From an uncultured virus (IMG/VR IMGVR_UViG_3300005095_000031) (Duplodnaviria; Heunggongvirae; Uroviricota; Caudoviricetes): 20,000 bases of DNA. The stretch lies in the IMG/VR virus record IMGVR_UViG_3300005095_000031; one strand, written 5' to 3'. The notes under the pieces were generated by a model that was not told where the DNA came from, did not search any database, and saw nothing but the letters and a program-made list of their open reading frames with translations. Position numbers and translations under genes: made by a program. This document shows positions 212-19,326 of the stretch, one piece after another (the stretch's first letter is position 1; every line of letters begins with the position of its first letter).

Positions 212-541
212 CTACGCCGCCATCACTTTTCTCCTGAAGGCACGAATAACGCAATCCTCATTCTCCTTGATCCTCTTGATGATCTTCTTGAAGAACTTGG
301 ATATCTTTTGATTTTCGTGCCACCTCACAACCCTACCATTCACGATTGCAACCCTTTCTCCCAGATCAATCTCTACGCAATCGAATCTGCTTCTGAGCAT
401 ATCGGCAAAGTCTCCGTAGTCAACCTCGGCAACAACGCCATAGTCATCAACAAGCTCTACTGAGTATCCTCCTACAAACTCGATAGCGTACTTAGGGCTT
501 CCGCAGACAACATCTGCAAATACCATCTCTACAGAGTTCAC
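212..541 (-). CDS. Hypothetical protein (109 aa)
   Basis: ORF overlaps the ligase stop (ATGA-type coupling) in a co-oriented gene run. Confidence 0.75.
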   Translation of the reverse strand: MNSVEMVFADVVCGSPKYAIEFVGGYSVELVDDYGVVAEVDYGDFADMLRSRFDCVEIDLGERVAIVNGRVVRWHENQKISKFFKKIIKRIKENEDCVIRAFRRKVMAA

Positions 542-1206
542 TTGAAGTCCTTGTATTTGATTTTTGTGATAATCCTATTCCCCATCCTGTCGAGGAGTCC
601 GCCAGCAGGAGTTCCAACGATTCCTTCTGCCTTGAAGTCTCCAAAAGCCGAAATCATCTCGTCTCCGGCTTCAGATTCAAGGCGGATGGCATCAACCGCA
701 TCGCTCAGAGACATGCGCTTCACGACCGGAACACACCTCATGTTGAGCTTTTTTGCGATTTGCTCTACGCTTTCGTGCTTCAGCCATACGCCGTTGACGA
801 TGGCATCAAACAGAATCACCTCATAGTCATCGAAACCATGCTTTCCTTTCTGAATCTTCTCTCCAACGCCTTCTCCGTACAGAACAACGGATTCGGCTTT
901 TTCAAACATATCCAGAAGGGTGTCGATGTTTTCGTACTCCCAGTTGTTGTACCAGTCTTGAAGAGGCTTCGGAATCTCAGCATTGTCGCTCTTGCCCTTG
1001 AAATCAACCTCCCAGGTATCAGGATTAACGATAATCCTAACGTTCATACCGTCAACTTTTTCCTTCCACTCCCACTCCACATCAGCAAGAGCCTTGAAGT
1101 TGGGATCGGCCCATTTTCCGACGATAAAATCGCCCTTCTTGTGTTCTCCGTCACTCTTTTCGTAACGCTTGAACACGCCATTGATTTTGTGATATTTCAT
1201 ATACAC
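538..1206 (-). CDS. ATP-dependent RNA ligase (Rnl2-like adenylyltransferase domain)
   Basis: Nucleotidyltransferase motifs in order: I KEKVDGMN, III LYGE, IIIa FDA, IV EGIV, V KIK. No OB-fold C-terminus as in DNA ligases. AAAGGAG lies just upstream. Confidence 0.85.
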   Translation of the reverse strand: MYMKYHKINGVFKRYEKSDGEHKKGDFIVGKWADPNFKALADVEWEWKEKVDGMNVRIIVNPDTWEVDFKGKSDNAEIPKPLQDWYNNWEYENIDTLLDMFEKAESVVLYGEGVGEKIQKGKHGFDDYEVILFDAIVNGVWLKHESVEQIAKKLNMRCVPVVKRMSLSDAVDAIRLESEAGDEMISAFGDFKAEGIVGTPAGGLLDRMGNRIITKIKYKDFK

Positions 1207-11056: not shown

Positions 11057-11107
11057 CGAAAATCAGTTGGTGGGCATGGTAGGACTCGAACCTACGACCA
11101 CCCCGTT

Positions 11108-11822
11108 CAGGTTTGTGAATGTTTCCATCCTCCCTGGACTATATCATCACCCTCATCATTACAAGTTAGGGTGTCGGACGCTAATGATGTATTACAAAGG
11201 ACGCTTCCTTTACCATCTAGTCTCTGCACCTTCCAATCAAGTTCGTGATTGGCTTGGCTCAGGATTGCCATTAGATTCCATATGAGTGGAACCACTTTCT
11301 TGCGGTCTTTTTTGTTACTTTATATTTGCTTGAGATATAGTCAATAGTTTTACCAGCAAGCTCTTCAGCTTTTGGTTTCTTAGACATATGCATATTTTTA
11401 CATACTACTGAACAAAACTTACTATTAGATCCGCCTAGCGGTTTATTGCACTCTATACATCTAAATCTTTTAGGTTCCCCTGAATTCATCCGATTCTCAT
11501 CTACAGATTTCTCTATAGTGACACAAGATAGCCAATTATGAAGCCTTGTATGGTCTGCTTTTGAAAGAAGAATAAGATTGTCGTCCCTGTTGTTTTCTTT
11601 GTTGCCATCTAAATGGTGCACTTCAAAACCGTCAGGAATAGTTCCAACCCTTTCCTCTATCACTGCAATATGTTCATATACATATCCTTCCCAGTTGTCA
11701 CTTTTCATCGCATATTTACTGTCAGGATTGTATACCAAAATATACCCATTAAGTCTTCTACTTTTTGGCATTTGGAATCCTTTTTGCCATAATAGCACAA
11801 GCAAATTAGAATACCAAACCTT
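11108..11822 (-). mobile_element. Group I self-splicing intron (715 nt) carrying an HNH endonuclease gene
   Basis: Exon ends in U and intron ends in G. P AATTCAGGGGAAC (11474-11486), Q GGCAATCCTGAGCCAA (11254-11269), R GGTGCAGAGACTAGATGG (11213-11230), S GATATAGTCC (11136-11145). P3 TCGGATG/CGTCCGA. P2 CTATAGA-GAAA-TCTGTAG. Confidence 0.93.
11271..11771 (-). CDS. Intron-encoded HNH homing endonuclease with C-terminal zinc finger (likely start MPKSRR)
   Basis: VHHLDGNKENNRDDNL...H HNH motif. CIEC...CSVVC. AAGGA SD before the ATG at 11771. Confidence 0.9.
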   Translation of the reverse strand: MPKSRRLNGYILVYNPDSKYAMKSDNWEGYVYEHIAVIEERVGTIPDGFEVHHLDGNKENNRDDNLILLSKADHTRLHNWLSCVTIEKSVDENRMNSGEPKRFRCIECNKPLGGSNSKFCSVVCKNMHMSKKPKAEELAGKTIDYISSKYKVTKKTARKWFHSYGI

Positions 11823-12034
11823 ATGAGCGGGGAGCTCTAACCAACTGAGCTACATGCCCGACTCTGCATTTCGCCGCCCAGAAATAAATCCAAACGGCAT
11901 GGCTGCAGAACACCATAGTAGTTTTTCCATCAAGGTGACTACCAAACACCGACAAAGCATCAATAAATACCTTGTCGGAATCTGGGTTCCAGCAAATATA
12001 TATACCCATTTGAAACACAAAAAGTTCATCAATA

Positions 12035-12116: not shown

Positions 12117-12197
12117 TGGCGGACATGGCTGGAATCGAACCAGCGAGTCTTTTCCGTAATTGACCAGCAACGCAGAAAAAACTCCCCAAGCATGCCC
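12117..12197 (-). ncRNA. tRNA-like RNA lacking a D-stem (acceptor stem, long irregular stem, T-arm, CCA)
   Basis: GGGCATG/CATGTCC acceptor with G3-U70. GCTGG TTCGATT CCAGC T-arm. GAGTTTTTTC/GAAAAGACTC stem. Ends G-CCA. Confidence 0.6.
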
Positions 12198-12210
12198 TCC
12201 GAGAAGCAAA

Positions 12211-12284
12211 TGGCACGACAGGGGCGGAGTCGAACCGCCTGCTTTCTGCATGCTACCATTGCAACATCGGCCCCTTTTGTCGGC
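12211..12284 (-). ncRNA. tRNA-like RNA with truncated anticodon arm
   Basis: CGACA/TGTCG acceptor-like stem, D-like TGC AATGGTA GCA, mini-hairpin TGC AGAAA GCA, T-arm GGCGG TTCGACT CCGCC, 3' CCA. Confidence 0.5.
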
Positions 12285-12294
12285 CAAAGGCCTT

Positions 12295-12392
12295 TTAGCC
12301 TATCGACGGCTGCGCAGTACCATCGAAGAGGGACTCTGCGGGACTCGAACCCGCATCGCATACTCACAAAGCCAATTCCTATCGAAAACTAA
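12295..12392 (-). ncRNA. Candidate Y-RNA-like (YrlA-type) permuted tRNA mimic
   Basis: Terminal stem TTAGTTT/AGGCTAA, TCGA/TCGA, GGC/GCC, TGCG/CGCA encloses T-arm GCGGG TTCGAGT CCCGC, closed stem AGAG/CTCT and D-loop-like GATGGTA. No CCA. Confidence 0.45.
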
Positions 12393-13407: not shown

Positions 13408-13485
13408 TGGAGCCAGAGGCCGGATTCGAACCGACAAAAAAATCAGAATCTAATCTGACGTGTCTCCCACTTTCACCACTCTGGC
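13408..13485 (-). tRNA. Atypical tRNA or pseudo-tRNA with 6-nt anticodon loop (identity undetermined)
   Basis: Perfect GCCAGAG/CTCTGGC acceptor. T-arm GTCGG TTCGAAT CCGGC. TCAGA TTAGAT TCTGA anticodon arm. U7 variable region. T-CCA. Confidence 0.6.
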
Positions 13486-13491
13486 ATTTTA

Positions 13492-13583
13492 TGGTACCTC
13501 TGGCAGGATTCGAACCTGCATCAGCCGCTTATCTGGCGCTGACGGAGTATAAACCCGCTGCTTTACCGTTAAGCTACAGAGGT
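13492..13583 (-). tRNA. tRNA-Ile(UAU) with long variable arm
   Basis: ACCTCTG/CAGAGGT acceptor. GCGGG TT TAT AC TCCGT. Variable arm CAGCGC CAGATAA GCGGCTG. A73, CCA. Confidence 0.88.
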
Positions 13584-13634
13584 ATTAAGATATGGTGCAC
13601 CCTGCAGGACTCGAACCTGCGACCTATCGCTTAG

Positions 13635-14235
13635 CTTCCAGCATCATGTTTCCATGACCACCAAAAAAGCTTGGCTTGCTGGCTGGACCATTTCTTCACC
13701 ATTCCAGGTGGACTGCGTATGGCCTCTACGGTTCCTAATTGTCTTTAGTTACCTCGGAGTTGTCGTGTGACCTATACTCACTTACGAGATTCTCCGATAT
13801 AGCAGTCTCCACTTCATGTGTTATTCCGTTCAATTGTATAAAACGAGAAAACTTGCCCCTACAAGATGAACTACAGCATGTGTATCTAGTATTCTTTGAC
13901 AAAAATGTTTGACTACGTTCTCTATGGAATTCTTCTCCACATTGAGGACATTTCAGGATACACATCTTTCTTCCCGTTGAGGAATGTCTTCTTGCGTGCT
14001 CTGATTGACAAGTTAATTCAAGGTTGTCAATACAGTTGTTCTTCTTGTTTCCATCTACATGATGAACAATCTCACTTGCATCGAGAAGTCTTCCTAGGTG
14101 ATTCTCCATTATGATTCTGTGATGAAGAACATACCCGTGCTTTGTTGCGTTTGGGTGTCCTTTAACAACAGCGTAATCGTAGTCACCTTTCTTGACAATC
14201 TTCTCGATGTTCCACATGAAGGCTCCTTTAAGTTA
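13635..14235 (-). mobile_element. Group I self-splicing intron (601 nt) carrying an HNH endonuclease gene
   Basis: Exon ends in U and intron ends in G. P3 GACTGC/GCAGTC (13802-13807/13711-13716), P4 TCGGAG/CTCCGA (13792-13797/13754-13759), P6 GGT/ACC, P7 GGCCAT/ATGGTC, P8 CACC/GGTG, J8/7 AAGAA, P9 CATG-GAAA-CATG. Confidence 0.88.
13735..14217 (-). CDS. Intron-encoded HNH homing endonuclease with C-terminal zinc finger
   Basis: VHHVDGNKKNNCIDNL...H HNH motif. CPQC...CSSSC. AAAGGAG SD at 14223-14229. Confidence 0.9.
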   Translation of the reverse strand: MWNIEKIVKKGDYDYAVVKGHPNATKHGYVLHHRIIMENHLGRLLDASEIVHHVDGNKKNNCIDNLELTCQSEHARRHSSTGRKMCILKCPQCGEEFHRERSQTFLSKNTRYTCCSSSCRGKFSRFIQLNGITHEVETAISENLVSEYRSHDNSEVTKDN

Positions 14236-14286
14236 AAGGCGATTGCTCTATCCAACTGAGCTAAGAGTGCAAAATGCTTAACAAAA

Positions 14287-18642: not shown

Positions 18643-18859
18643 CATCAAGCAACGAGCTTATCTTTATGGTTGCTATATCTCCATCATATTCTCTTATCTG
18701 AAATTTATCGAATCCGACTGAAATCAACTTTCCAATCTTGAGCCCATCAAACTCAGTTGATCTAACGGCAACATCTTCTCCTCTTTCATGCTTCCTGAAA
18801 AGTAGCTCTTGATAATATCCAAAAGATGTAACCCCGTTGCCATCTTTTACTAAATCCAT
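18635..18859 (-). CDS. Hypothetical protein (74 aa), small beta-rich
   Basis: AAGGA SD. Overlaps the VRR-NUC gene end. Confidence 0.7.
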   Translation of the reverse strand: MDLVKDGNGVTSFGYYQELLFRKHERGEDVAVRSTEFDGLKIGKLISVGFDKFQIREYDGDIATIKISSLLDVS

Positions 18860-19326
18860 TTTAATATCCTTCCTGCATATAGCTTATAACCTGCGAGCTT
18901 TTCTGACACTTCCGCCCCAAGCTCTCTTACGCCAGAAACCACATCATCAAGGCTCCTTGCCAATATATACTTATATCCCCTGCTTTCAAGCATTTCTTGA
19001 AATTCTTTTTGACTATCGCTCTGTCTGCCTCCATGAGATGACTTTACTTCTATATATAATGGTATACCTATAATATATCCTTCATTATTTTCTGCGTGCA
19101 TCCACACCTCAATATCAGCTTTACCATTAATTGAATTGCACCTAACCATTCTTTTGGATGGATTCCCTCTTTTGTTTTTTCCATCGATTGAAAATTGTGC
19201 GCCGTTTACCCTGTTATGAGGTATTTTTGACTTCTTAAAAAAAGAAATTATTGACGATTGAACTTGAGACTCTGGTATTTTTATATTGCCTCGGCTTACT
19301 GTTTTCCTTCTCAATATTAAAACCAT
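18850..19326 (-). CDS. VRR-NUC domain PD-(D/E)xK nuclease (Holliday junction resolvase-like)
   Basis: ESQVQ...GKADI...YIEVKS..GRQSDSQKEF...GYKYILARSLDDV pattern. Confidence 0.85.
   Translation of the reverse strand: MVLILRRKTVSRGNIKIPESQVQSSIISFFKKSKIPHNRVNGAQFSIDGKNKRGNPSKRMVRCNSINGKADIEVWMHAENNEGYIIGIPLYIEVKSSHGGRQSDSQKEFQEMLESRGYKYILARSLDDVVSGVRELGAEVSEKLAGYKLYAGRILKWI

Follow-up and report, generated by a model that had tools for sequence, protein, structure and literature searches.

An HNH endonuclease gene threaded through the core of a group I intron that divides a tRNA(CAU) gene in a phage-like tRNA array

A 2014 review (PMC3984707, excerpted text) names the Azoarcus pre-tRNA-Ile intron, a studied example of the group I introns that interrupt bacterial transfer RNA (tRNA) genes with the anticodon CAU, and a title in its reference list has a group I intron of the Synechocystis tRNA-fMet gene encoding the endonuclease I-Ssp6803I. 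According to the same excerpts, the phage introns known by 2014 were all located in protein-coding genes, despite the many tRNA genes of phages. HNH endonucleases from phage group I introns include I-HmuI of Bacillus phage SPO1 and I-PfoP3I, which the excerpted text of PMC3428280 describes as a nicking HNH enzyme from a cyanophage DNA polymerase intron; the introns of both split protein-coding genes. Here, we analysed a 20,000-nucleotide (nt) stretch of DNA from an uncultured virus (IMG/VR record IMGVR_UViG_3300005095_000031; ‘the window’ is this whole stretch), in which a tRNA(CAU) gene is divided by an insert that combines group I intron features with an HNH open reading frame (ORF). We consider it probable that this is a complete, HNH-encoding group I intron in a phage-like tRNA array, that it splices and that its endonuclease mobilises it; splicing, translation, cleavage and homing are inferred from the sequence.

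The locus resembles the Synechocystis system in that a group I intron with its own endonuclease gene occupies the anticodon loop of a CAU tRNA. It differs in the enzyme, PD-(D/E)xK in the cyanobacterial host and HNH_3 in the window; a first-pass annotation, made from the letters alone, had already set I-Ssp6803I apart as a PD-(D/E)xK rather than an HNH enzyme, and the excerpted text of PMC3384342 bears this out. With I-HmuI and I-PfoP3I the locus shares the class of enzyme, although their introns lie in genes of another type. Our search of the open-access literature turned up no phage tRNA gene described as holding a group I intron; subscription journals were outside this search and an earlier report is possible. 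One paper (PMC5746245) gives a vibriophage ‘tRNA-Stop’ with a 2.5-kb insert, called by ARAGORN, that its authors say is possibly an artefact, and in the excerpted text of a paper on a RaK2-like phage (PMC5259590) the HNH genes of that phage are listed as free-standing, with one located where a tRNA gene ends.

The two halves of the tRNA(CAU) gene flank an insert that enters between anticodon base 36 and base 37 (Table 1); this insert follows directly on a U and has G as its final base. At default settings ARAGORN found 10 tRNAs in the window and none at 11859..11068. With introns allowed, it returned tRNA-Met(cat) c[11068,11859], a clean cloverleaf whose four stems are regular, with CUCAU and AACGG on either side of a 715-nt intron. 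Long anticodon-loop introns gave five genes in the window, of which we accepted two, this one and a split tRNA-Arg described below, both made of orphan halves with full stems; the other three were judged spurious, being halves of different tRNAs joined together or having poor stems. Across the window and six relatives the tRNA stems are paired in 49/49, 28/28, 35/35 and 35/35 cells. We conclude that the division of this tRNA by a group I intron is far beyond chance; the same split tRNA with a related intron is found in many independent sequences. The sequence and the intron-allowing search thus confirm what had first been read here, namely perfect halves 715 nt apart at site 36/37, with a U at the 5′ splice site and a terminal G. 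Standard annotation had been expected to miss the tRNA, as ARAGORN does by default; likewise, the GenBank records of the jumbo phages Muenster, Turkey5 and phiKp_21 annotate nothing over the related split tRNA.

Table 1 Features of the split tRNA(CAU) gene, its intron and the intron-borne HNH gene. All features are on the minus strand. Paired cells are standard pairs counted per helix in seven pre-tRNAs; a compensatory pair is one in which both sides have changed
Feature	Position	Description	Paired cells	Compensatory pairs
tRNA(CAU) 5′ exon	11859..11823	37 nt, ends ...CUCAU; acceptor 5′ strand, D arm, anticodon-stem 5′ strand, loop to U36; sequence and ARAGORN		
Group I intron	11822..11108	715 nt, starts AAGG (first base A), ends CCUG (terminal G 11108); ends fixed by the tRNA halves		
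tRNA(CAU) 3′ exon	11107..11068	40 nt, starts AACGGGG; A37, A38, anticodon-stem 3′ strand, variable loop, T arm, acceptor 3′ strand, encoded CCA (ends ACCA)		
tRNA anticodon stem			35/35	4
P1	11825..11819 with 11528..11522	CAU/AAGG across the 5′ splice site, with UCUUGUG; U.G at the splice site	28/28; U.G 7/7	1
Internal guide sequence UCUUGUG (P1 3′ strand)	11528..11522	inside ORF, codons 82-84		
P2 hairpin	11518..11501	7 bp, GAAA loop, inside ORF; Rfam alignment and relatives		
P3	11493..11487 with 11180..11174	5′ strand inside ORF	48/49	3
J3/4 (AAUU)	11486..11483	inside ORF		
P4	11483..11478 with 11264..11259	5′ strand inside ORF	42/42	2
P5 (CC/GG)	11474..11473 with 11269..11268	closes the long extension; 5′ strand inside ORF	14/14	2
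P5 extension (L5)	11472..11274	C-terminal third of ORF: predicted Zn ribbon and helical DNA-binding part		
P5 3′ strand, J5/4, P4 3′ strand, P6/P6a	11269..11228	P6/P6a at 11258..11228	P6 21/21; P6a 47/49	P6 0; P6a 5
P7	11222..11218 with 11141..11137	GACUA with UAGUC; Rfam alignment		
Extra two-part helix between P7 and P3′ (P7.1-like)	11217..11186	UAAUA internal loop; Rfam alignment and relatives	24/27	3
P8	11173..11148	Rfam alignment, pair counts	39/42	4
P9 hairpin	11130..11117	GAAA loop; Rfam alignment and relatives		
Shine-Dalgarno-like AAAGGA	11784..11779	six bases upstream of the HNH ATG		
HNH endonuclease ORF	11771..11271	166 amino acids; ATG at 11771, TAA 11273..11271; sole gene in the intron		

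A covariance-model search upheld the proposed group I identity of the insert: the Rfam group I intron model RF00028 aligns over its whole length (positions 1-253) with 11551..11115 on the minus strand and scores 75.4 bits against a gathering score of 50 (E = 7.7e-18). We counted pairs in seven pre-tRNAs, those of the window and of the loci L078, L004, L001, L002, L068 and L111, after removing the ORF-only loops from the three long introns, aligning the sequences and deriving an RNAalifold consensus; seven sequences are a small basis for the counts (Table 1), and the alignment on which they were made is also the one that gave the structure. Being invariant, P7 is uninformative in these counts. 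The stem of P2 has a different sequence in every relative, its four-base loop always being GAAA or GUAA, and the intron ends in G in all seven pre-tRNAs.

In P1, the start of the intron and the guide covary across about 290 nt. The two sides read AAGG/UCUU in the window, CUGAG/CUCAG in L004, CA/UG in L078, CG/UG in Muenster and Turkey5, C/G in L068 and UC/GG in L111, and the pairing distance is 240-300 nt in the three ORF-bearing introns. Because the guide follows the first intron bases in six relatives, the long-range P1 is well supported. It was part of the original reading, in which CAT^AAGG paired with TCTTGTG to give the U-G pair, as was an extra helix between P7 and P3; both are present.

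The product of the ORF, which had also been recognised as an HNH gene at the outset, matches Pfam HNH_3 (PF13392) with E = 1e-13 and 51.1 bits (threshold 24.8), and PHROG 15471 over its full length (3.8e-22). Residues H52, H53, N61, N65, H74 and H78 and four cysteines are invariant in an alignment of six sequences that are about 40% identical. L004 carries AAGGAG at the place corresponding to the Shine-Dalgarno-like element. There is, in addition, a promoter-like site (TTGGTA, 17 nt, TATTAT) at 11817..11789 on the minus strand, inside the intron and just 5′ of the HNH start codon.

The RF00028 match begins 220 nt after the ATG, well within the ORF. Codons 1 to about 81 lie in the loop of P1, codons 82-100 make up the guide, P2 and the P3, J3/4, P4 and P5 strands, and the rest lies in the P5 extension, with the stop codon just before the 3′ strand of P5. 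We conclude that the HNH ORF is not confined to one loop but passes through the core of the ribozyme in its 5′ half. That some intron ORFs overlap core sequences is already known, being mentioned in a figure legend of the 2014 review (PMC3984707, excerpted text); what is unusual here is a single gene in two loops that are joined through five core strands. In L004 (3519-3600) and L110 (290-370) the HNH ORF continues past P4′, P6 and P7 and stops in the P7/P3′ helix, so that more of the core is coding.

In an AlphaFold model built with six homologues (mean predicted local distance difference test, pLDDT, 80.3), the HNH domain at the N terminus is modelled with confidence, and a four-cysteine ribbon precedes a helical C-terminal part. 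Residues 86-101, with pLDDT <50, correspond to nt 11516..11469, that is, to P2, P3, J3/4, P4 and P5. The 5′ core of the ribozyme is thus predicted to encode a disordered linker between the two domains, and in this model the core seems to be carried in the sole stretch of the protein that is free to vary. The best fold match of the model is I-HmuI (1u3e; probability 0.96, E = 0.09). When solved structures were searched with the protein sequence, no match rose above chance level.

Codon statistics are in keeping with this layout. Among three complete intron-borne genes, linkers share 28% of their amino acids and 57% of their third codon positions (72 codon pairs), against 58% and 43% for the HNH domain (229 pairs) and 41% and 37% for the C-terminal domain (189 pairs); in three free-standing relatives the linker values are 25% and 34% (59 pairs), the whole comparison being a small sample. 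Changes on the non-coding partner strand preserve the pairs that fall within the ORF: in P3, UCGGAU/GUCCGA of the window corresponds to UGGGGU/GCCCCA of L078, and P4 reads UCAGGG/UCCUGA in most sequences and UCAAUG/CAUUGA in L004. The peptide N-S-G, common to the window, L078 and L110, is the translation of the J3/4-P4 sequence GAAUUCAGGG.

Related introns lie both in bacteria and in phages. A core-pattern scan of one genome per prokaryote species gave at least 120 loci; among the 121 core matches listed, 49 have tRNA halves around them, and 19 of these 49 were read by eye as tRNA(CAU) cut after CUCAU. In three proteobacterial assemblies (L155, L207 and L135) the intron has the same P1, GAAA-capped P2, P3-P9 and extra helix between P7 and P3′, the last being nearly the same in L155 as in the viral contig L078. 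Host gene type, insertion point and core helices are therefore those of the window, but these three bacterial copies are ORF-less and of about 230-250 nt, whereas the window intron holds an HNH gene and the tRNA that it splits belongs to a phage-like array. The window ribozyme is best classed as a member of this widespread bacterial family of tRNA(CAU) anticodon-loop introns. The Azoarcus intron is not known to have the extra helix. A helix between P7 and P3′ is typical of group I subgroup IA, and bacterial tRNA introns are called IC3; the core sequences of the window match those of bacterial tRNA introns.

Among 50,697 phage records, blastn detected the core at 74-81% identity in jumbo phages of Klebsiella and E. 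coli, including Muenster, KP13-7, RCIP0023, TH47, Turkey5 and phiKp_21, and the match is unannotated in all of them; RF00028 scores are 104.1 bits for Muenster and 95.1 bits for Turkey5. At these loci, in a gap between annotated tRNA genes, a tRNA(CAU) is interrupted at the identical position by an intron of about 230-240 nt that has no ORF. In Turkey5 (L002, 703-1731) the intron-split, unannotated tRNA(CAU) is followed, about 20 nt beyond its 3′ end, by the start of an annotated HNH homing endonuclease gene. This arrangement recalls collaborative homing, reportedly described by Zeng, Bonocora and Shub in 2009, in which a free-standing endonuclease is said to lie beside an ORF-less intron; in the window, by contrast, the endonuclease is inside the intron. 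A simple before-and-after relation between the two layouts is uncertain, because the Turkey5 protein is only 27% identical to the window HNH protein (E = 2e-4).

A core-pattern scan of viral contigs gave at least 118 stretches, and the flanks of 80 were examined. In all, 122 core matches were examined, counting the window and three phage loci; after rows unlike tRNA were dropped by eye, eight of the 122 were accepted as lying in tRNA genes, seven in tRNA(CAU) (the window, L001, L003, L002, L068, L078 and L111) and one in tRNA-Asp (L072). In that last viral contig, at about 1057-1360, a related core lies between tRNA-Asp(GUC) halves and scores below the RF00028 cut-off. The threaded HNH layout is found in L078 (78.2 bits) and in L004-L007 (53.9 bits for L004, which is missed at default search filters), with HNH proteins 40-42% identical to that of the window; L110, a partial locus, is a fourth case of the same layout. 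An exact 26-nt probe from the P7 region had no match in viral contigs.

Metagenome contigs extend this set considerably. An HNH relative is encoded in 306 stretches, of which we examined the best 80. Strict core motifs were present in 16 of the 80, and at least 25 have a split tRNA(CAU) around the HNH gene, its halves 570-1020 nt apart; many others are on contigs that are too short. Rfam comparison of 19 loci without strict motifs placed nine above the cut-off, with the intron start about 225 nt into the ORF, and three below it (two at a contig end), and gave no intron over the ORF in seven. In one metagenome contig, a transfer-messenger RNA gene (L261, 538-882; 85.9 bits) and an HNH-bearing, intron-split tRNA(CAU) are separated by a few hundred bases. 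The HNH-bearing introns form a sizeable family, of which the window, at most 42% identical in its HNH protein to any relative, is a divergent member. The ribozyme is not peculiar to the window phage, and the element is more widespread than the first-pass annotation supposed.

The site itself occurs in three states, with intron and ORF, with an ORF-less intron, and as an intact tRNA-Met(CAU), and the distribution of the element among related genomes is patchy. By tblastx the window shares with the flanks of L004 or L078 only tRNA, intron and HNH gene, which fits either horizontal spread or deep divergence. A search for empty sites in related phages, suggested at the outset, succeeded in part: intact tRNA-Met(CAU) genes are present in L008-L010, but the search gave no close allele.

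The spliced product would be a 77-nt elongator-type tRNA reading AUG. A paired G1:C72 speaks against a bacterial initiator tRNA, as does, by a similar rule, an anticodon stem without the initiator pattern; both apply to the window tRNA, which argues for the elongator type. A CAU tRNA would read AUA if C34 were modified, as in tRNA-Ile2, and the marks for the Ile2-modifying enzyme in E. coli are C4:G69 and C5:G68. The jumbo-phage and bacterial intron-split copies carry both pairs, but the window tRNA has C4:G69 together with A5:U68. The nearest annotated phage tRNAs are mostly named Met and in a few cases Ile.

Relatives of the HNH gene also occur outside introns. Free-standing genes with 32-41% identity lie inside intron-less tRNA arrays in L008-L010, in phiKZ (gene 296), in Psa21 and in Bacillus phage Izhevsk, and the phiKZ locus has no RF00028 match at E up to 0.001. 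The niche is that of SegB of T4, a free-standing homing endonuclease in a phage tRNA gene cluster that mobilises the cluster (PMC2330249, excerpted text), although SegB is a GIY-YIG enzyme outside introns. The linker of the free-standing relatives has the same length, 21-29 amino acids, and no remnants of a ribozyme core are visible in it. Since these proteins are colinear with the threaded ones and have a linker of the same length, we consider a simple origin of the threaded ORF from two insertions unlikely. We built a quick HNH tree of 44 rows, comprising 35 genes labelled intron-borne, eight free-standing genes and, as the outgroup, the second HNH gene of the window (see below). The free-standing genes are scattered among the intron-borne ones, the label needing five changes, of which well-supported branches force at least two; most forks are unsupported, four ‘intron’ labels come from motifs only and the window row is long (end branch 1.57). 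This scatter hints at an escape of the free-standing genes from introns rather than a repeated rise of the threaded layout.

A second tRNA in the window is also split around an HNH gene. At 14270..13593 on the minus strand, perfect tRNA-Arg(UCU) halves lie 601 nt apart, cut after U34; the insert is preceded by U, ends in G and holds a second HNH_3 gene at 13735..14217. We do not class this insert as a group I intron: it has no Rfam intron match at E up to 10 and no guide candidate with a G opposite the last exon base, and blastn-short against the first intron and its relatives gave only matches of 8-13 nt. The closest relative of the second HNH gene, free-standing and 51% identical (L131), has a stop codon that overlaps the start of an intact tRNA-Arg(UCU). 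A comparable case is found in phiKZ (L252, 981-1830), where orphan tRNA-Asn(GUU) halves with a 7-bp acceptor stem flank a 774-nt insert after the anticodon. This insert, which does not end in G and has no ribozyme match, contains an annotated, unusually long tRNA-Asn (87-89 nt, long-armed) and the HNH gene PHIKZ296. It looks like an endonuclease cassette that splits a resident tRNA and supplies a replacement. Together, these loci suggest that the HNH enzymes target the DNA of tRNA-gene anticodon loops whether or not a ribozyme is present to repair the damage.

If the window intron is active, as we think probable, its expression can be outlined as follows. The tRNA array would be transcribed on the minus strand, and the last three exon and first four intron bases would pair with the guide about 290 nt downstream, forming P1 with the U.G at the splice site, while the core would fold into P3-P9 and the extra helix between P7 and P3′. 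A guanosine would attack after U36, and the terminal G at 11108 would direct exon ligation. Alignment of the exons would probably come from the anticodon stem and not from a P10 helix; that stem is intact in the window tRNA, and a title in the reference list of PMC3984707 states that the Anabaena pre-tRNA intron requires exon pairing in the anticodon stem. Since the guide and core strands also code for protein, one RNA could not be translated and folded for splicing at the same time. Judging from other HNH endonucleases encoded in phage introns, the protein would most likely nick or cut the intron-less tRNA(CAU) gene of co-infecting relatives, and repair would copy the intron into it.

Several observations weigh against this account. 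No P10 pairing is evident in the window intron, and the loop that P1 has to close is about 290 nt long and may be occupied by ribosomes. The sequence UACAAGG (11550..11544, minus strand), shortly upstream of the guide, is able to pair with it and may compete with P1. A close intron-less allele of the window phage was not found, the best intact allele in isolated phages being 82-87% identical to the exons. Phage origin itself, although likely in view of the tRNA array, an RNA ligase, a VRR-NUC nuclease and relatives in viral collections, is not helped by the two flanking ORFs of 505 and 1919 amino acids, which had no tblastn match in the 50,697 phage records. Finally, how one colinear gene first arose across two loops joined through core strands is unexplained.

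The strongest competing explanation accepts splicing and places the doubt in the enzyme, which would no longer be a homing endonuclease for this site and would instead be a decaying passenger or have another role, such as in RNA folding or in cutting elsewhere in tRNA arrays. The long branch and low identity of the window HNH protein fit this explanation, as do the free-standing relatives beside tRNA genes for Lys, Thr and Asn, which show that target preference varies in the family. However, the ORF is intact and its catalytic and zinc-binding residues are all invariant, and, with identity at about 40%, many lineages retain a full-length ORF, which points to selection on the protein. We regard this explanation as unlikely.

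A stronger form of doubt holds that the intron is a dead relic, unable to splice because its 5′ core has been overwritten by the ORF; the tRNA(CAU) would then be a pseudogene, and the HNH gene would amount to a free-standing one. Some 85 nt of core must indeed also encode protein, P1 has its unusual span, and dead insertions seem to be tolerated, as the tRNA-Arg(UCU) gene in the same array is split by an HNH gene without a detectable ribozyme. Yet all helices of the window intron are intact, compensatory change on the non-coding strand maintains the P3 and P4 pairs that fall within the ORF, the linker nucleotides are conserved beyond the needs of the protein, and the Rfam score is well over the cut-off, so that we consider a relic very unlikely. 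An assembly artefact, or tRNA-like halves brought side by side by chance, is scarcely conceivable as the source of the split: spurious genes are produced by ARAGORN with long introns, but here two perfect halves exactly enclose a full ribozyme and the same arrangement recurs in independent isolates and assemblies.

A broader scheme would join the active, mobile intron to the other HNH loci. The HNH gene and the ribozyme would be a co-evolved unit in which translation and splicing exclude each other on any one RNA, and the free-standing HNH genes, phiKZ gene 296 included, would be its escaped descendants. The same enzymes would insert into anticodon loops without a ribozyme, as in tRNA-Arg(UCU) of the window and in tRNA-Asn of phiKZ with its odd replacement tRNA-Asn, the split tRNA being either sacrificed or rejoined by a non-group-I route. 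Taken as a whole we hold this scheme to be speculative and rather doubtful.

The surroundings of the intron comprise a minus-strand array of at least 11 tRNA genes. An RNA ligase (PF09414, 6.5e-18) at 538..1206 on the minus strand, about 10 kb from the array, may act in tRNA repair; the VRR-NUC nuclease is at 18850..19326, and most other ORFs of the window are without a family. Megablast of the whole window against phages gave tRNA matches only, and the 505-amino-acid flanking ORF had no match in viral contigs either. Within the array, three T-arm-like GGTTCGAnTCC hairpins occur in about 240 nt at 12120-12360 on the minus strand, between tRNA-Thr and tRNA-Arg(CCU), with no recognisable cloverleaf; they may be decayed or unusual tRNAs. 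On the same strand, ARAGORN calls a tRNA with an undefined anticodon loop at 13408-13485 and a 92-nt tRNA-Ile(UAU) with a long variable arm, unusual for Ile, at 13492-13583.

The contrast between bacterial introns, mostly in tRNA and ribosomal RNA genes, and phage introns in protein-coding genes is contradicted by the window element, by the ORF-less introns of jumbo phages and by the metagenomic relatives. HNH enzymes join PD-(D/E)xK, the one characterised class of tRNA-intron endonuclease. Since standard pipelines miss intron-split tRNAs, phage tRNA counts and arguments from codon usage are incomplete for such genomes. The dual-coding stretch, at once ribozyme core and protein linker, offers a natural setting in which to ask how a single sequence accommodates the demands of both RNA and protein, and the series from free-standing gene, through a gene beside an ORF-less intron, to a gene inside the intron can serve to test ideas on the origin of mobile introns.

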